IMG/VR virus record: IMGVR_UViG_2713897055_000015
Location: 1-10,263 of that record
Source of the DNA: a virus
Taxonomy: Duplodnaviria; Heunggongvirae; Uroviricota; Caudoviricetes
Strand: one strand, 5' to 3'
DNA: 10,263 nucleotides
A program made the translations under genes and the position numbers. The notes under the pieces were generated by a model that did not search any database, had not been told where the DNA came from, and saw only the letters and a list, made by a program, of their open reading frames with translations. Below are positions 149-10,263 of the stretch, piece after piece. Position 1 is the first letter of the stretch. Every line of letters starts with the position of its first letter.

Positions 149-238
149 CCTTAATCATCTGCGTAAACATAAGTAATCATAATGATCATTCAGCCAGCGC
201 AATTTTGAGCTTTGCTTTAATCTCAGTGAGTTACCGCC
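149..238. repeat. Copy 2 of the ~80-bp direct repeat, with a ~9-bp internal insertion; its end overlaps the stop codon of the 93-aa ORF
   Basis: Read directly; the hairpin present in copy 1 is disrupted here (GCGC to GAGC). Confidence 0.7.
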
Positions 239-512
239 GCAACCGTTCCGGCTTCTTCCAGTGGTACGTGATTTTCTCCTTCTCCCGATACATCTCCACG
301 CGGCGACGGTATGCCAGCAACTCAAGGACTCTGGTTCGTATGTTGCGCATATCCACGCCGTTAAGCTCAATACCATCACGGCGCATCACCTCAGCAACAA
401 CACGCACATAATTTTCAGCGGTCACGCTGTCCGGATGTGTGGCCTGTTCGTCATGCTGCTGGCTGATTCCGGTAACGCGGCGGATTAATCCCAGTAGTTC
501 GGCTTCTGTCAT
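231..512 (-). CDS. Hypothetical protein (93 aa), basic C-terminus, function unknown
   Basis: ORF from the six-frame track; G-rich Shine-Dalgarno-like GGGGG about 5 nt upstream of the ATG at 510-512; protein-like composition. No family recognised by eye. Confidence 0.5.
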   Translation of the reverse strand: MTEAELLGLIRRVTGISQQHDEQATHPDSVTAENYVRVVAEVMRRDGIELNGVDMRNIRTRVLELLAYRRRVEMYREKEKITYHWKKPERLRR

Positions 513-544: not shown

Positions 545-612
545 TCGGGTCCTTCCTGGAATTATGGCCCGTTACGGGGCGGCGACCTCACGGTTTTTCG
601 CTATTTATGAGC
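545..612 (+). other. Lambda-type cos site copy 1 (cosQ-like flank, cosN, I2-like), plus-strand orientation
   Basis: 568-589 CCCGTTACGGGGCGGCGACCTC followed by TTTTTCGCTATTTATGA. From memory this is nearly identical to the lambda cosN region, with the 12-nt cohesive-end sequence GGGCGGCGACCT at 577-588. Confidence 0.75.
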
Positions 613-626
613 TTTTTTTAGAGGGA

Positions 627-777
627 GGTTGTTGTTTAATTGTTTGTCATATCCATTTGATAACTAAGTAAAAATAAAGAGCAATACAACAACCTGATAG
701 TGTTTTTTTGATGCTAAAAATAAAAAAATGCTAATTGAATCAAATAGTTTTAAAAAAATACGTGGTTGTTGTATTGC
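627..777. promoter_or_regulatory. AT-rich region with three GGTTGTTGT-type repeats in direct-inverted-direct arrangement (candidate cosB-like terminase-binding R sites)
   Basis: GGTTGTTGTTT at 627-637; GCAATACAACAACC at 681-694, which is the exact reverse complement of GGTTGTTGTATTGC at 764-777. Spacing after cosN resembles the lambda R3-R2-R1 layout but the repeat sequence differs from the lambda R sites as I recall them. Confidence 0.45.
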
Positions 778-806
778 GTATTTGATGGCGTAACAGAAAG
801 TGATTT

Positions 807-1247
807 TTAACTTTGCTGTTCTGTAACGACTGATTGTTCCATGCTGGCACGGCGAACGCTTACGGCATGACGCCACCCAGCCAGAAAGCCGGCCATTTTA
901 TTTCGCGCTTTGCTCACTTCTTCCGGTGAGTAGCCGTAAATCTGTAAACCTTCATCAAATCTATGTTCTGTTTCTTCACTGGAGTACTCGTCACGCTCAG
1001 ATGAAAGCAGCCTGGCAACCATAATTTTTTCCAGCGCACTGGTTTCTACGTGATATCCAATGGCCTCAAGATGGCTTTTACCTGAAGACCAAAGCAATGT
1101 ATGCCCGATGTGATAACCGCCGGACTTTCCGCGATCCGCATTAAGATACGGCATCCCTTGTTTGGTCCATGCGCGAATAGTGGTTCTGTTTACCTTGAAA
1201 TGTTCAGCTATTTCCTGCTGACTTACAAAACAAGCCTTATTAATCAT
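807..1247 (-). CDS. Nu1-like small-terminase-family protein: N-terminal winged-HTH cos-binding domain with a divergent C-terminal region (146 aa)
   Basis: N-terminus MINKACFVSQQEIAEHFKVNRTTIRAWTKQGMPYLNADRGKSGG resembles lambda gpNu1 N-terminus (VNKKQLADIFGASIRTIQNWQEQGMPVLRGGGKG, recalled from memory). SD GAGGT 8 nt upstream of the ATG at 1245-1247. A cos site lies about 90 bp upstream. Confidence 0.7.
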   Translation of the reverse strand: MINKACFVSQQEIAEHFKVNRTTIRAWTKQGMPYLNADRGKSGGYHIGHTLLWSSGKSHLEAIGYHVETSALEKIMVARLLSSERDEYSSEETEHRFDEGLQIYGYSPEEVSKARNKMAGFLAGWRHAVSVRRASMEQSVVTEQQS

Positions 1248-1304
1248 AATGTTACCTCAATTGACTGATTAAATGTTAATCAAGTGGTGGTGGTGTCACC
1301 TTCA

Positions 1305-1390
1305 CGGAAAAACGTCATAAATAGCGAAAACGCGCGAGGTCGCCGCCCCGTAACGGGTCCATATGCCGGAAAGGACCCGTAAAAAAAAGC
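1305..1390 (-). other. Lambda-type cos site copy 2 (cosQ-like flank, cosN, I2-like), minus-strand orientation, directly upstream of the Nu1-like gene
   Basis: Reverse complement of 1305-1390 reads ACGGGTCCTTTCCGG..CCCGTTACGGGGCGGCGACCTCGCGCGTTTTCGCTATTTATGACG. The 12-mer is at 1337-1348 on the complement. About 85% identical to copy 1 over ~70 bp, in inverted orientation. Confidence 0.8.
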
Positions 1391-1404
1391 CGGATTTCTC
1401 CGGC
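1381..1404 (-). terminator. Intrinsic terminator (hairpin GCCGGA-TTTC-TCCGGC followed by U8 on the minus strand) ending the capsid operon
   Basis: Read directly: A8 at 1381-1388 and hairpin at 1389-1404 on the plus strand, giving hairpin plus T-run on the minus strand, 7 bp past the stop of the 137-aa ORF. Confidence 0.75.
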
Positions 1405-1410
1405 CTTGTC

Positions 1411-1824
1411 TCAGATGGTTTTCAGTATGCGCTCGATGTCGCCATCATCGCCCGGGTTTCTGCCGTCGTATGCCATGCCAGCTGAAACGGCTTGCGGGCT
1501 GTGCATGTCCATAAAGTTTTCAAAGGCTGCGGTAAGCTCCGGCGCAACCTTCTGGCGTTCCTGCTCTATGGTCATGCTAAGGATGCTTTTAGCCGTACCA
1601 ACATCGATACAAGGCACGTTTGCCATTGCACGTAACAGCGGCTGATAGTCGTTATGCTCATGAAGCGCCATAATCGCATCAGCGCGCGGCTTGTCCTGCT
1701 CTTCCAGTTTGTTGAGTTGATATACGGCCTCGTAGGTTGATAAACCTCTGTCAGCCATTGCTCGCGCTTCGGCTTTAAATTTACTCGCCAGCGGTAGCGT
1801 CATGATGCTTTCATTCGTTGCCAT
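1411..1824 (-). CDS. Hypothetical protein (137 aa), last gene of the capsid operon; function unknown
   Basis: ORF with protein-like composition, 12 nt downstream of the decoration-protein gene. No confident homology by eye. Confidence 0.65.
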   Translation of the reverse strand: MATNESIMTLPLASKFKAEARAMADRGLSTYEAVYQLNKLEEQDKPRADAIMALHEHNDYQPLLRAMANVPCIDVGTAKSILSMTIEQERQKVAPELTAAFENFMDMHSPQAVSAGMAYDGRNPGDDGDIERILKTI

Positions 1825-1836
1825 CGTTCCCCCTGC

Positions 1837-2172
1837 TTATCGGGCCAGCGGCTGAACGGATACGCCAGAACCCGCAAAGGCGGCGCATTTTTTCGCATCG
1901 GTGTCGACGCTCTCGGGCCAGTTCACGGCGGCGATATTAAAGATCCCCGTCTTGTAGCACTGTGCTGATTTCTGCTTTGACGTGTCCACGGGGTACGAAG
2001 TCAGATAAACAGCCTTTCCGGACGCCTGACCATCCCACGGCTTAAACTCGCCATTGTCCGCCAGCATCAGCGGGGTAAATTCCTGAATGACGCCAGCATC
2101 AGCGGCAAAATGTACCAGCGTCGTGGATACCTGCTGACTGCCTGCAAATAACTCAATGTATGGAGTGTTCAT
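1837..2172 (-). CDS. Head decoration protein, lambda gpD-like (111 aa)
   Basis: Translation shares TPLML, WDG, YK(S/T)G(T/I)F, WPE and AFAG motifs in the same order as lambda gpD (recalled from memory); size matches (~110 aa). Confidence 0.8.
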   Translation of the reverse strand: MNTPYIELFAGSQQVSTTLVHFAADAGVIQEFTPLMLADNGEFKPWDGQASGKAVYLTSYPVDTSKQKSAQCYKTGIFNIAAVNWPESVDTDAKKCAAFAGSGVSVQPLAR

Positions 2173-2183
2173 AGAATCCCCCG

Positions 2184-3239
2184 TTAACCAATTTTGACGG
2201 TAACAAATTTGCGAATGTCTGCCGGCACCGGCTGCGGTGCGCTGTGCGTCTGCACGTACTCAATCGCCGGATCGCCGTCCTCAATCCAGTTTTTCGGGTA
2301 GTACATGTTTTGCGTTGCGCCCGTTCTTACCGCTTCCTGATCCATAATCGCACCATAAGCAACCAGCCCTTTATTGTTGGTGTTGCCCAAGACCAGCAAA
2401 TCAGGCTCAAGGAAATGTTTTTCGGTGCCGTCGCTGTCGGCGTATTTGCCGGAATAGACGATAAGGGCAATATCGCCCAGATAGCCTTTAAAGCTCACCA
2501 CTTCGCCTAGGTTTTTACAGGCCAGTTCTGCGGCGGATTCTGAACCACGGGAAAGATCGTACAGTTCGCGGAATTTTTTAAAGCTGCGTAACGTGCGCCA
2601 TACCTCAGCGCCCATAATCATGACGTTTGCGGGGCAATTGCCCTGATCCGCATAAAGCTCGATATCATAGATTGGATCGTGGGTTTCTTTGTCCTGCTCG
2701 GACCATTTACGGCCTTTGGCCTGCTCTATGATGTTGTTTTCCGGCATCTTCCAGTCGATTTCATAGCGTTCTATGCCTTCGCCCTCAATGATGTTTTTTC
2801 CGGTCGTTACCGCATTTACCGCCAGCCATTCAACACGCGCTTTAATAGCGTTTACCTGGCGGCGCATGTTGCCAGTAATCAGGCGCATACGGCGATAGGT
2901 TGGGTCGTTAAGCTGTGCCGGATCTTCTCCAGCCATGCGCATGATGGTTTTTGTTGGATCGATTTCGTGCTTTGGCTTCATGTAGCCAGGTTTAATCGTG
3001 CTGGTTTCGTACCCTTTATCGCGCTGTACCTGGCTACCAACCATAGGCGAGCAAAACGCTGACATAGTGACTTCTTCGGTGTCCAGGTTATCCAGCATGA
3101 TGTTTTGGGTGTTGAATGTCGCTACTTTCGGGAAAAACAGCGTGGTAAACAGCGGACTAAATTTAAATTCCGCAATATCCCCGCGATTCAGGTACGCAAA
3201 AAGCTGGTTAGTGTTAAGTGCCGTTGCTTTGCCTGCCAT
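2184..3239 (-). CDS. Major capsid protein, lambda gpE family (351 aa)
   Basis: Extended blocks match lambda gpE as recalled: EFKFSPLF..LFF, PGYMKPKHEI, GEDPAQLNDPTYRRMRLI, VSFKGYLGDIALIVYSGKY, YPKNWIEDGDPA. Confidence 0.92.
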   Translation of the reverse strand: MAGKATALNTNQLFAYLNRGDIAEFKFSPLFTTLFFPKVATFNTQNIMLDNLDTEEVTMSAFCSPMVGSQVQRDKGYETSTIKPGYMKPKHEIDPTKTIMRMAGEDPAQLNDPTYRRMRLITGNMRRQVNAIKARVEWLAVNAVTTGKNIIEGEGIERYEIDWKMPENNIIEQAKGRKWSEQDKETHDPIYDIELYADQGNCPANVMIMGAEVWRTLRSFKKFRELYDLSRGSESAAELACKNLGEVVSFKGYLGDIALIVYSGKYADSDGTEKHFLEPDLLVLGNTNNKGLVAYGAIMDQEAVRTGATQNMYYPKNWIEDGDPAIEYVQTHSAPQPVPADIRKFVTVKIG

Positions 3240-3683: not shown

Positions 3684-4094
3684 TCAGAACGGAATATCAT
3701 CACCGTAGGGGTCATCGTCTCCCGCTGGTGGCTGATTACCCTGTGCGCCTGTGGTTTTGCGTCTGTTCCCGCCAGGACGTGCCGCACGGGCACTGATTAC
3801 GCTGTCTGCAATAACCTGATAACCCTGCCGCGTTTCCCCGTTCTGTCCGGTCCACTGGCTTATCTGCATCACGCCAGATATGCTGGCAACGTCGCCTTTT
3901 TGATGTTTAGCCAGGAAGTCGGCCTGCTTACCAAATGCCATCACCGATAGCCATAACGTAGCCGTTCCGTCATCTGCCTGGCTGCACGGAAGGGGGACCG
4001 CCATACGCGCCAGCGTCATCGGTGTGCCCTTGCTGGTCTGTTTTACCTGCGGGTCGTCCACCAGCCGCCCGTAAGCGGCTATCTGTGCTGTCAT
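3684..4094 (-). CDS. ssb: Single-stranded DNA-binding protein (SSB family, 136 aa)
   Basis: OB-fold-like N-terminal region resembling E. coli SSB, Gly/Gln-rich linker, and the characteristic acidic C-terminal tail ending DDIPF. Confidence 0.88.
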   Translation of the reverse strand: MTAQIAAYGRLVDDPQVKQTSKGTPMTLARMAVPLPCSQADDGTATLWLSVMAFGKQADFLAKHQKGDVASISGVMQISQWTGQNGETRQGYQVIADSVISARAARPGGNRRKTTGAQGNQPPAGDDDPYGDDIPF

Positions 4095-4452: not shown

Positions 4453-4675
4453 CTCTACCCATCTACCCGAATGCTCATCATGTCAGTAATGGCGCGGCTT
4501 TCAGCGGGTAGATAGCTTTTTGGGCTCCTCTACCTGCCGTCTACCCTGCTACCTGAAACTGATAAAATCAGGTAGAAGAGGTAGAGAGCTTTTATTAGCC
4601 TTCTACCTAGCCCTCTACCCACTTATCATGTTGAATAATATGCGTTTATTTCATTCAGGTAGATGGGGTAGAGGG
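4453..4675. repeat. Iteron array (about 12 copies of a TCTACC-core octamer in both orientations) with AT-rich stretches; putative origin of replication
   Basis: CTCTACCC 4453-4460, ATCTACCC 4461-4468, GGGTAGATA 4506-4514, CTCTACCT 4528-4535, TCTACCCT 4540-4547, CAGGTAGAAG 4569-4578, GGTAGAGA 4580-4587, TTCTACCT 4601-4608, CTCTACCC 4613-4620, GGTAGAT 4658-4664, GGGTAGAGGG 4666-4675. Lies immediately 3' of, and overlapping, the primase gene end. Confidence 0.7.
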
Positions 4676-6438
4676 CTTTTACAAAAAATTATAAAAAACG
4701 CGTCGCAATCGTCTGTTGTAATTGCGTTGGTCTGCGTTACTCCCTTAACTTTTCGCGTAATATATTCATGCCCGTAAACTTTCGCCGCTGGCTTCATGGC
4801 CTTGCTGAACTCAGCCACGTTTAGCGGTTTGCTCCTGCCTGCGTATGCCATAAACGCCAGATAGACGCGGTAAAGGCTGTTCCTGGTCGTGTACTTCACT
4901 GAATCGCCACCGCCGCCCATCATCAGGCCGCGTGCTTCCTCCAGAAAATTCAGGAACTGGCAAAACTCAATAACCGGATCCGTCTGTTGCTTTATTGCCA
5001 GAGCTTCATCACCGTCACGCTGTTCCAGTAGTAAAGCCCGTGCCTTCTCAGGGTCGGTAAAGTTCGCCAGCAATCGGCGGATAATGACAGGGATTTCAGC
5101 CGCAATCTTTTCCGGTAGCTCCCTGTCTTTTTCGGCCTCACTGACGATATTGTCGAAACGGAAAATTACGCGACGACGTGACACACCTCCGGCCCGTTCG
5201 GTGAATATCATCGGGTTATTGTTGGTAGCCAGCACCACCGCCCTGATTACCGCCGTAAAACGCTTCTCATATTTCGGGTTAATTTCCACGGGGTCGCCGC
5301 CCGTGATTTTCTTGATGCCCGTTCCTTCGCCTGTATATTTCGGCTGGTCAGCCAGGACGATAAGACGACTCCCGACAACCTGCGCACGTCCACCAGCATC
5401 ATCAAGCGATGTCATTTCAGCGCTTACCGTGTTCTGTTTCCCTGCCAGAAGGCTGGCTATGTGTGTGAATGTACTTTTACCGCTCCCGCCGTCTCCGGTG
5501 GCCTCAATAAACATCTGCCAGTCGTACCGGTTCGCCATAATCATGTACAGCGCGGCACATATACGCATCATCTTGCGCGGGTCTTTTCCGGCTGCGTGCT
5601 CAAGCCATTTATGAAAGTTTGGCGCGTTGTCGCGGATATTCTCCCCTGGTGCTGGTGGCGTGTACTCAATGCCGTTGTGCGTGGTGATCCAGTTCTCCGG
5701 CGTGTGCGGGGAAAATTCCCCCGTTTTCAGGTCAAGCGCACCATTGGCGAACGGCAGCAAATCGCCGGACGGCTCGCCCATTGGTTCGGCAATAACTTTT
5801 AACGCTTCCACGGCGTTATTGATTACGCGCTTGCTGAAAGTGGCCCTGTGCTCTGAATAGATCGCCACCATTTCGCGGCTAAGTTCCATTGTGCTGACCG
5901 GACACCATACCCCGCCGCGCCATACGTGAACGATTTCACTTTCCGGATGCACACAAACGCCATCAAATCGACCAGCAAGCATCTGTGCGCGCTCACTGTC
6001 TGCCATTTGTGCCAGTTGCGTATTTTTCTGCTCCGGCATGGTAAGCCCTGCGGCAATATTTTCACGCTCAGCATTCAGATAGCGCCGCCAGTTTTCACAC
6101 TTCTGGACGTGCATTCCTTCGTGGTAAAAATTTGCGTCCTGAATATCTGCCGCCGCCAGCTTCTGACCAATCTTTTTGGTCTCCACTAAATCCAGTTCTC
6201 CGGCCTGGTACAGCCTTACGCGCTTTTTCCCATCCGGAACAATTTTCAGCGCATCAAGTTCGGCAAGCTGCTTTGGCCCAAGCCACACAGGCGGCACATT
6301 ATCGCCGGATGCGGGGCCATCCTGCTCCTGCCATTGTTTCGCGTGCGACCAGGCATCACTACCCGCAAAGATAATTACCTCTGTGTCTTTGTGTTTTATT
6401 CCGCGTGGCTGTTTTTTTACGTTCGGTGCCAGTTTCAT
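4651..6438 (-). CDS. Primase-helicase of the P4 alpha / D5 family (595 aa) with a P-loop NTPase domain
   Basis: Walker A motif GDGGSGKST within a region typical of phage/plasmid primase P4-family C-terminal domains; position (upstream of iterons, downstream of immunity-type genes) matches satellite replication genes. The final ~17 codons are encoded by iteron sequence. Confidence 0.88.
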   Translation of the reverse strand: MKLAPNVKKQPRGIKHKDTEVIIFAGSDAWSHAKQWQEQDGPASGDNVPPVWLGPKQLAELDALKIVPDGKKRVRLYQAGELDLVETKKIGQKLAAADIQDANFYHEGMHVQKCENWRRYLNAERENIAAGLTMPEQKNTQLAQMADSERAQMLAGRFDGVCVHPESEIVHVWRGGVWCPVSTMELSREMVAIYSEHRATFSKRVINNAVEALKVIAEPMGEPSGDLLPFANGALDLKTGEFSPHTPENWITTHNGIEYTPPAPGENIRDNAPNFHKWLEHAAGKDPRKMMRICAALYMIMANRYDWQMFIEATGDGGSGKSTFTHIASLLAGKQNTVSAEMTSLDDAGGRAQVVGSRLIVLADQPKYTGEGTGIKKITGGDPVEINPKYEKRFTAVIRAVVLATNNNPMIFTERAGGVSRRRVIFRFDNIVSEAEKDRELPEKIAAEIPVIIRRLLANFTDPEKARALLLEQRDGDEALAIKQQTDPVIEFCQFLNFLEEARGLMMGGGGDSVKYTTRNSLYRVYLAFMAYAGRSKPLNVAEFSKAMKPAAKVYGHEYITRKVKGVTQTNAITTDDCDAFFIIFCKSPLPHLPE

Positions 6439-9024: not shown

Positions 9025-10263
9025 TCAAGAATTTTGAGAGTAAATTCGCGGGGTCATAACAACGATTTTTTCATCATTGTTCTGGAGAAGCTCGAGACGC
9101 TCAACCCATAGATTAAGAGCGTCACGTTTTGCATCGAGATAACGGGAGTGATTATAGACTCGTTGCACTCCTGGCAACTGGTGCGCGGTTAGCTGCTCCA
9201 CTACATGAGGATCCACGCCTAAATCGTTCAGCATCGTTGTAAACGTGTGCCGGATGTCGTGCAACGTCCAGGGGGCTTGATTAATACGTCTGTGTGCCGT
9301 TCTTCCGTACTCTGATACGGATGATTGCCCTTTCAGTTCTCCGAGCAATAATCCCGTGTGCCTGTTCTGCTCCACCAGCTTCGTTACGAACGGCAAGATC
9401 GCTTCCGGTATTGGCCTGAATATTGCTACCTTCGTTTTGCTATGTTCTTTCGGCACGGTCCAGAGCATTTCTTTAAAATCCCATTCCTGGACCTCAGAGC
9501 GTCTTAGCTCAGTGGTACGACATCCGAAGACAATCAGGAGGCGAATCAGGGCGCTGTAGTACGGTGGGTAAATTTTTTCATCCAGGGCGCGGAGTAATTC
9601 CCCAAGCTCCTTGTTTGTTAGTACGCGCTCGCTTATTTCTGCTTTTTTCCCAACATCACCTACAACCATATCATCTAGAACGTTGGTAATTGCGTAGCGT
9701 CGTTTGCGGCAGTACTTAAGCGCCTGCTTGCATACCTGTAACAAAAATCCTGCTGATACCGGATTACGCTTAGCAAGCTGATCAAAACAGGTCAGCCAGT
9801 GGCGTAGCTCGCATTTTTCCAGCGGCATAGCACCAATATGGCTGATTATGTGTGTATTGATCCGGCTTTTCAGAGATTCGTAATCTGTGCGCTTTTCCTT
9901 CGCGTACGATTCAAGCCAGTAAGTGAGCGCTTCCTTAACCGTAACAGGTGATAACGCTTCCTGTACGGTGTGATTAAGCTCATGGCGTGGATTTTTACCC
10001 TCAGCAAGCCAGGCGCGACACTGCGACGCTTTTTCCCTGGCTGCTTTCAGGCTCAAATCTGGATAATTTCCCAGCCTCAGACGTTCAGGGGCTACCTTCC
10101 TGCCTGTTCCGGCCCTGTAAGTGAAATACCAGGTTAACAGGCCATTGGTTGAATGCCTTACGCTAAGGTTGCCACCATCATTAAAAAAGGTGTTTTTTGT
10201 GGTTGGTGATCCGCTTAATTTTCGTAAAAGAGTGTCGCTAAGTCTATGAATTGCCCTGCTCAT
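9025..10263 (-). CDS. int: Tyrosine site-specific integrase, P4-type (412 aa; start codon at the window edge, N-terminus possibly a few residues longer)
   Basis: N-terminal arm-binding-type region (LSD..L..L.....K....DGG.L.V.....G...W.F.Y) and C-terminal catalytic signature HDIRHT ... VYNHSRY, typical of P4/CP4-57-type integrases. Confidence 0.95.
   Translation of the reverse strand: MSRAIHRLSDTLLRKLSGSPTTKNTFFNDGGNLSVRHSTNGLLTWYFTYRAGTGRKVAPERLRLGNYPDLSLKAAREKASQCRAWLAEGKNPRHELNHTVQEALSPVTVKEALTYWLESYAKEKRTDYESLKSRINTHIISHIGAMPLEKCELRHWLTCFDQLAKRNPVSAGFLLQVCKQALKYCRKRRYAITNVLDDMVVGDVGKKAEISERVLTNKELGELLRALDEKIYPPYYSALIRLLIVFGCRTTELRRSEVQEWDFKEMLWTVPKEHSKTKVAIFRPIPEAILPFVTKLVEQNRHTGLLLGELKGQSSVSEYGRTAHRRINQAPWTLHDIRHTFTTMLNDLGVDPHVVEQLTAHQLPGVQRVYNHSRYLDAKRDALNLWVERLELLQNNDEKIVVMTPRIYSQNS

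Follow-up and report, generated by a model that had tools for sequence, protein, structure and literature searches.

An inverted pair of cos sites with a phage-type second cosB in a phage-inducible chromosomal island of the EcCICFT073 family

Here, we analyse a stretch of 10,263 nucleotides (hereafter the window), which is a phage-inducible chromosomal island (PICI) of the EcCICFT073 family with its packaging module at 546-1379. In this module, two cos copies face each other around a gene for an Rpp protein. The copy on the 3' side of rpp carries a cosB homologous to that of a class of lambdoid prophages, and comparison with phages and sister islands suggests, at the level of sequence, that this second site is a copied phage cos with an exchangeable, phage-type cosB. 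We consider it probable (roughly 0.6) that the site upstream of rpp serves those helpers which Rpp can hijack, that the copied phage cos serves another helper class directly, and that the inversion of the segment between the two sites, which is found in several islands, is incidental. The two-cos structure itself is known biology; what the window contributes is a new allele in which the second cosB differs. Within the literature searched, the phage-type cosB of the second site, the existence of several cosB specificity classes and the occurrence of both orientations appear to be new.

The island and its two cos copies

Close relatives of the window in E. coli chromosomes are located between phoQ and roxA, which is the site of EcCICFT073 in strain CFT073, and the gene order is that of EcCICFT073 (Table 1). 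Most related islands match from about position 229/230 of the window onward. This marks the island boundary, and thus both cos copies lie inside the island. The arrangement recurs in 44 complete genomes (at least 80% coverage), in CFT073 and in one O157-type island. It had been considered that the left copy might belong to a separate adjacent element, or that the arrangement might be an assembly artefact. Nothing was found that speaks for such a view, and the repeats at 1-240 show only that the island end is complex; the boundary lies outside copy 1, the same layout is seen in dozens of complete genomes, and the CFT073 sites were cloned and deleted experimentally, so that we regard this explanation as practically negligible.

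The repeats just outside the island end at about 229/230 comprise a unit of approximately 66 nt that occurs twice (40-105 and 173-238, 89% identical, 133 nt apart), together with a shorter pair at 26-49 and 149-172. Each of the 66-nt units ends with TTACCGCC, the stop-codon end of the 93-aa open reading frame. These repeats may be leftovers of duplicated island termini or att sites. On the other side of the module, the minus strand at 1411-3239 has genes for a decoration protein (D-like), for a major capsid protein (lambda E-like) and for a protein of 137 aa, the latter weakly similar to the C-terminal part of a head maturation protease (scaffold-like). EcCICFT073 was described in 2018 as an island without capsid morphogenesis genes that is packaged in full-size heads (PMC6092414). 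A Pfam search gave no match for the 93-aa and 137-aa proteins which flank the module, and no terL was found in the 10.3-kb window.

Table 1. Features of the island and its packaging module, in window coordinates
Feature	Position	Strand	Evidence or remark
93-aa conserved gene (phrog_1561)	231-512	-	left flank, fixed when the cassette flips
cos copy 1 (EcCICFT073 cos2 by position)	546-617	+	inverted-repeat arm; alignment to published cos2, lambda and phage 21
cosQ-like part of copy 1	~546-560	+	
cosN of copy 1	577-588	+	
I2-like part of copy 1	589-617	+	
Phage-type cosB of copy 1	618-806	+	74-79% identity to the cos-cosB of prophages L004 and L005
R3-like element of copy 1 (GGTTGTTGT)	627-635	+	
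R2-like element of copy 1	686-694	-	inverted
R1-like element of copy 1	764-772	+	
rpp (RppA-like, 146 aa)	807-1247	-	PDB 6HLK; 95% identity to the EcCICFT073 protein
Rpp-type cosB of cos1	1248-1307	-	three substitutions relative to the EcCICFT073 cos1 cosB
cos copy 2 (EcCICFT073 cos1): cosQ, cosN, I2	1308-1379	-	repeat arm; alignments
cosN of copy 2	1337-1348	-	
Terminator-like hairpin with T-run	1386-1407	-	after the 137-aa gene, directly outside the copy 2 cosQ; kept in all aligned islands
137-aa gene (phrog_1999)	1411-1824	-	right flank, fixed when the cassette flips
D-like decoration protein	1837-2172	-	
lambda E-like capsid protein	2184-3239	-	
SSB	3684-4094	-	
D5-type primase	4651-6438	-	
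Integrase	9025-10263	-	

The first-pass annotation had placed two inverted cos copies at 545-612 and 1305-1390, with about 85% identity. A repeat search of the window confirms that the copies are real and corrects their extent: the arms, at 546-617 (+) and 1308-1379 (-), form an inverted repeat of 72 nt with 83% complementarity and a distance of 690 nt. Both arms contain cosQ, cosN and I2, the cosN being in each case the exact lambda sequence GGGCGGCGACCT (577-588 on the plus and 1337-1348 on the minus strand). As had been proposed, both copies were aligned to lambdoid cos sites, and they share cosQ-cosN-I2 with lambda (DE3 record) and with the annotated phage 21. The two sites face inward around rpp. 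Copy 2 indeed occupies the canonical position, 90 nt upstream of the rpp start codon (1247), and copy 1 lies past the rpp stop codon (807). A terS-terL pair follows neither of them; copy 1 leads to the 3' end of rpp, which is encoded on the other strand, and copy 2 leads into rpp.

The gene between the two copies, which had been taken as Nu1-like, is an rpp gene and thus encodes a mimic of the TerS DNA-binding domain rather than Nu1 or another TerS. Its product, a helix-turn-helix protein of 146 aa, matches the RppC structure (PDB 6HLK) with E=5.5e-32 and is 95% identical to RppA of EcCICFT073, the last residues being different. The match to the TerS family is limited to the DNA-binding domain, aa 6-46. 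This is in agreement with the features of an Rpp protein, namely a TerS-like winged helix-turn-helix, a dimerisation domain of its own and no TerL-binding C-terminus. A promoter scan for rpp gave no convincing candidate on the minus strand, and the sole plus-strand match was at chance level.

Copy 2 has a single R3-like element ahead of the rpp start, ACCACCACC, at bp 55-63 from the nick (1286-1294, where the plus strand reads GGTGGTGGT). It corresponds to the R3-PICI proposed by Murialdo and Feiss in 2022 for bp 48-65 with an invariant part at bp 55-63 (PMC9026076). That study analysed only the cos1 type and does not mention a second cos site. In EcCICFT073, the functional cosB of cos1 was reported to extend into the rpp coding sequence.

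A different array comes after copy 1. The motif GGTTGTTGT has exactly three exact copies in the 10.3-kb window, in the order direct-inverted-direct, at bp 51-59, 110-118 and 188-196 from the nick; the first of these compares with the R3 of phage 21, annotated at bp 51-66. When one mismatch is allowed, the count in the whole window (6 found, 2.5 expected) is not significant. We give weight to the array because the three exact copies are clustered and are conserved in prophage cosB regions. One-mismatch sites for the IHF consensus WATCAANNNNTTR are found at 650-662 and 738-750, with a window count at chance level. At position 590, adjacent to cosN, copy 1 has an A at bp 14 after the nick (CTCACGG), where all other cos copies examined, from phages as well as islands, have a G (CTCGCGG).

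Two opposed cos sites had at first seemed to be a new oddity of this element, but such a pair was described and tested in EcCICFT073 in 2018 and 2019. The published cos1 is the site upstream of rpp, i.e., copy 2 of the window, and cos2 is the site beyond the rpp 3' end, i.e., copy 1; both sequences are printed in Supplementary Figure S1A of the 2019 paper (PMC6739421). Each site is functional when cloned on plasmids (Fillol-Salom et al. 2018 ISME J, PMC6092414). Deletion of cos1 lowered island transfer by lambda and phi80, deletion of cos2 raised it, significantly for lambda, and deletion of both together abolished it (PMC6092414). RppA binds the helper TerS and blocks the use of the phage cos (Fillol-Salom et al. 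2019 Mol Cell, PMC6739421). Of the two island cosB sites, it promotes the use of that in cos1 only, and it raises the transfer of cos1 plasmids (PMC6739421). The reason for having two sites was left open by the authors. When we searched the literature on PICIs for inversion, for cos2 or for paired cos sites, nothing came up beyond the 2018 and 2019 papers.

Phage-type cosB classes of the second cos site

The rpp gene of the window and its cos1 cosB are near-identical to those of CFT073; the stretch that extends from the rpp stop codon to the I2 of copy 1 has no relationship to CFT073. Its relatives are found in prophages instead. Copy 1 together with the GGTTGTTGT array shows 74-79% identity over approximately 225 nt to the cos-cosB of two lambdoid prophages (L004 and L005), in which the matching region is located immediately upstream of the TerS gene. 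All three GTTGTTGT elements (R3, R2 and R1) keep their position and orientation in both prophages, and prophages of O111:H- 11128 and VR50 likewise have this array ahead of TerS. The earlier suggestion that the array is a cosB of different specificity is well supported by this homology.

The cosB type of copy 1 was detected in 299 of 5426 E. coli genomes. In 35 of these the match has at least 95% identity, and the one case inspected (H142) lies in an island; the remaining 264 matches have 60-90% identity and include five inspected prophages as well as at least one island. Among the seven listed genomes with a 100% identical cosB, a second place is present in one. A BLAST search of positions 540-800 against the deposited phages of INPHARED returned only matches to cosQ, cosN and I2, and the GGTTGTTGT cosB in none of them; this phage class is so far seen only as prophages in E. 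coli genomes. A precedent for the acquisition of a helper cos is given in a preprint, where a satellite shares a cos region of 258 bp with its helper prophage at 90% identity.

Sister islands carry second cos sites that match three prophage cosB classes other than that of the window. The cos2 of EcCICFT073 aligns with the cos-cosB of O157-type prophages, which has ATGTCCGG-type elements upstream of TerS WP_000235436. In an O157-type island at the same att site, the second cos aligns with a third prophage class, with TCAGATCC elements upstream of TerS WP_001102145, and a further island (L011) has a cosB of the phage 21 type. The resident prophage of CFT073, which has a 21-type cos, was considered as a match for the EcCICFT073 cos2 and rejected: I2 and an R3-like element are shared, the rest of the cosB cannot be aligned, and the different prophage class in O157 strains is the better match.

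The cosB class tracks the N-terminal DNA-binding domain of TerS, while the C-terminal domain can stay near-constant, as in the comparison of prophage L007 with L004. Such a pattern is expected if the arrays are TerS-specific binding sites. The earlier proposal of alternative cosB specificities for different helpers thus receives strong comparative support, from the prophage cosB classes as well as from the TerS domains.

Several details of these loci are worth recording in their own right. The two prophage TerS genes (L004:6261-6740 and L007:3154-3663) encode a near-identical C-terminal, TerL-side domain joined to unrelated N-terminal domains, and each type adjoins a different cosB class. In E. 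coli 95-3192, at the same att site as the window, a full-length TerS of 180 aa replaces rpp (L002:9250-9792); its DNA-binding domain and the R-like elements upstream of it, GGTTGGTGT and AATACACCAACC, resemble the TerS and cosB of the GGTTGTTGT-class prophages. At the yejO site of E. coli strain 135 (L014:2400-3062), rpp is mostly deleted and two phage-type cos sites, one of the GTTGTTGT class and one of the ATGTCCGG class, face each other. A rare G>T change (GGGCGTCGACCT) is common to the two cosN copies of this locus and suggests that the inverted copies have exchanged sequence by gene conversion.

The second cos could also be an evolutionary relic of a phage cos-terS region, or of recombination with a helper, that is cheap to keep and has no adaptive role. 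This would be in line with the higher transfer by lambda and phi80 after deletion of cos2, with the divergence of the EcCICFT073 R1 from the phage sequence, and with the unusual A beside the cosN of copy 1. A second cos with intact cosQ, cosN, I2 and R3/R2/R1 is nevertheless retained in islands at three att sites, at least four phage specificity classes occur on otherwise near-identical islands, which indicates repeated replacement and not decay, and cos2 is functional on plasmids. We therefore judge the relic explanation unlikely. Another explanation is that cos2 acts as a decoy, which titrates the cognate terminase or breaks concatemers and so lowers the helper yield, rather than as a productive origin of packaging. 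A phage-type cosB should, from its sequence, bind the native TerS of the matching class, and PICIs are known to interfere with helper packaging (PMC6739421). A complete cosQ-cosN-I2-cosB is, however, sufficient for the packaging of plasmids, so that binding should package the island, and cuts in its own concatemer would hurt the island as well; a mere decoy is improbable on these grounds. We prefer to understand the second site as a copied phage cos that is probably maintained for a further class of helpers.

Orientation of the cassette

The segment between the two cos copies was also searched for inversions. As query we used the left flank followed by the cosB of cos1 and the first part of rpp, a combination which only a flipped cassette contains in this order. 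The CFT073-type cassette is flipped in 15 complete genomes (match over 100% of the query length), and the unflipped junction is found in 41 genomes, among them four independent CFT073 assemblies. Five more genomes, whose islands occupy two other att sites (yejO and tqsA), carry a flipped TerS-type cassette. There, I2 and cosB have moved and each flank has kept its cosQ half, which places the exchange within the cosN core common to both copies. Altogether, at least 20 complete genomes, which represent three island lineages, have the segment between the cosN sites in the flipped state, and in two of the lineages the breakpoints fall cleanly in the cosN core. The window-type genomes are unflipped throughout (44 of 44).

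Strain 23AR0303 (L006) is a more complex case. Its rpp is opposite in strand to the two flanking genes and encodes a protein identical to RppA. A simple reciprocal exchange was rejected here, as a cos2-type cosQ is present on both sides, which implies gene conversion or a different ancestor. Such a conversion fits homologous recombination better than a cut-and-religate route by the terminase, although the latter is geometrically possible, since the excised fragment would have identical cohesive ends. The 15 flipped CFT073-type genomes may derive from one event.

No recombinase or invertase gene was found in or beside the cassette; rpp is the only gene inside, and the neighbouring 93-aa and 137-aa proteins have no recombinase signature. 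A flipped cassette has two complete cos sites, in which every cosB is again paired with a cosQ-cosN, and rpp keeps its own upstream region. In the absence of a recombinase, and with the cos sites and the rpp upstream region left intact, we take short-homology recombination at cosN to be the source of the inversion, which would then be a by-product and probably not a regulated switch. A programmed invertible switch, which would regulate the polarity of packaging or the expression of rpp, has in its favour that natural islands show either orientation, in two cassette types and three island lineages. Besides the missing invertase, it is opposed by the lack of an obvious on or off state after the flip, given that the cosB partners and the rpp upstream region are kept, and by the uniform orientation within the four CFT073 assemblies and within the whole set of 44 window-type genomes; we hold it to be highly improbable. 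The four CFT073 assemblies with one orientation also argue that flipping is not frequent. Hence, the idea of an invertible segment in the first-pass annotation is borne out as far as natural variants in both orientations are concerned, but not as a rapid switch.

Helper range and comparison with known systems

The reading that we favour can be laid out as follows. The partner of Rpp in a heterodimer is the small terminase of helpers of the Nu1 type (lambda, phi80 and 21-type), and via the Rpp-specific R3 element at bp 55-63 the terminase is retargeted to cos1 and away from the phage cosB. For EcCICFT073, the retargeting to cos1 by Rpp-TerS was shown experimentally (PMC6739421). The cosB of cos2, in turn, is homologous to that of a lambdoid prophage class whose TerS has a different DNA-binding domain. 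The terminase of this class presumably packages the island directly from cos2 and does not need Rpp for it, so that the range of helpers would be wider. For helpers that are not cognate, cos2 may be a weak competing cut site, which is consistent with the published gain in lambda transfer when cos2 is deleted. Recombination between the identical inverted cosN cores would flip the segment I2-cosB-rpp-cosB-I2, with the cosQ halves staying at the flanks. The functional data on cos2, obtained with lambda and phi80 only, speak against this reading, as they describe a site which is dispensable and mildly harmful.

A comparison of island types is informative at this point. In the Rpp islands (the window and CFT073), Rpp acts on a Nu1-like TerS, and the second cos is of prophage classes with another, not Nu1-like TerS domain, represented by L004/L005 and L007, respectively. 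The islands with a full-length TerS (L002/L010 and L011, with phrog_57 matched over residues 1-174) have a second cos of classes with a Nu1-like TerS, namely that of L008 and the 21 type. This complementarity is what an extension of the helper range would predict; we infer it from just four island types.

A further-reaching version would see the module as a cassette with two keys, one being the protein, Rpp or TerS, with its own cosB and the other a swappable copy of a helper cosB, combined with flipping that is driven by the terminase and needs no recombinase. The keys would be complementary, such that Rpp islands gain access to phages with a TerS that is not Nu1-like and TerS islands gain access to Nu1-like phages. 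The terminase would cut both inward-facing cosN sites, and the released fragment, with its identical cohesive ends, could re-anneal either way. If true, a DNA inversion driven by terminase would be a mechanism without earlier description. We consider this combined proposal quite doubtful as a whole and retain the more modest reading, in which cos1 and cos2 serve different helpers and the flip is incidental.

Several consequences follow from the comparison. As the second cos matches definable cosB/TerS classes of prophages, candidate cognate helpers can be named; for the window, these include the prophages with a GGTTGTTGT-type cosB in strain Z1323CEC0018, O111:H- 11128 and VR50. If our reading is true, the helper range of widespread E. 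coli satellites is set by an exchangeable DNA cassette in addition to Rpp, and this bears on the prediction of which phages mobilise islands that carry virulence genes. The natural inversions show that inverted cosN cores are active points of recombination, which is relevant to the evolution of the islands as well as to the engineering of PICI- and cosmid-based delivery vectors. Thus, the analysis adds a testable answer to the question of the two cos sites and documents the inversion of the cassette.

Among known systems, the closest is EcCICFT073 itself. It shares with the window the integration site, the gene order, an Rpp with 95% identity, a near-identical cos1 cosB and an inverted second cos past the rpp 3' end, and it differs in the elements of this second cos, which are ATGTCCGG in CFT073 and GGTTGTTGT in the window. 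In comparison with the cos sites of lambda and phage 21 (cosQ-cosN-I2-R3-I1-R2-R1 upstream of terS), copy 1 of the window has every element in the same order and with the same spacing. It is, however, not followed by terS, as the array runs directly up to the 3' end of rpp, a gene of the other strand, and the R sequence differs from that of lambda (CGTTTCC) as well as that of phage 21 (CATGTCGG). Copy 2 resembles the N15-like sites and the R3-only cos-PICI proposed by Murialdo and Feiss in 2022 (PMC9026076) in having a single R3 equivalent; in the published model it is recognised by the Rpp-TerS heterodimer and not by a phage TerS.

With switches of the Hin/Gin or fim type, the module has in common the inverted repeats and the two orientations across genomes. 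Those systems have a dedicated invertase gene, which the window cassette lacks, and variation within the same strain is not seen in the four CFT073 assemblies. Finally, SaPIbov5, SaPIbov4 with its two putative cos sites, and the helper-embedded 11capE are instances in which a satellite copies the cos of its helper and is packaged by the native terminase. The island described here would differ from these in that the copied cos coexists, in inverted orientation, with a protein-based retargeting of the terminase.
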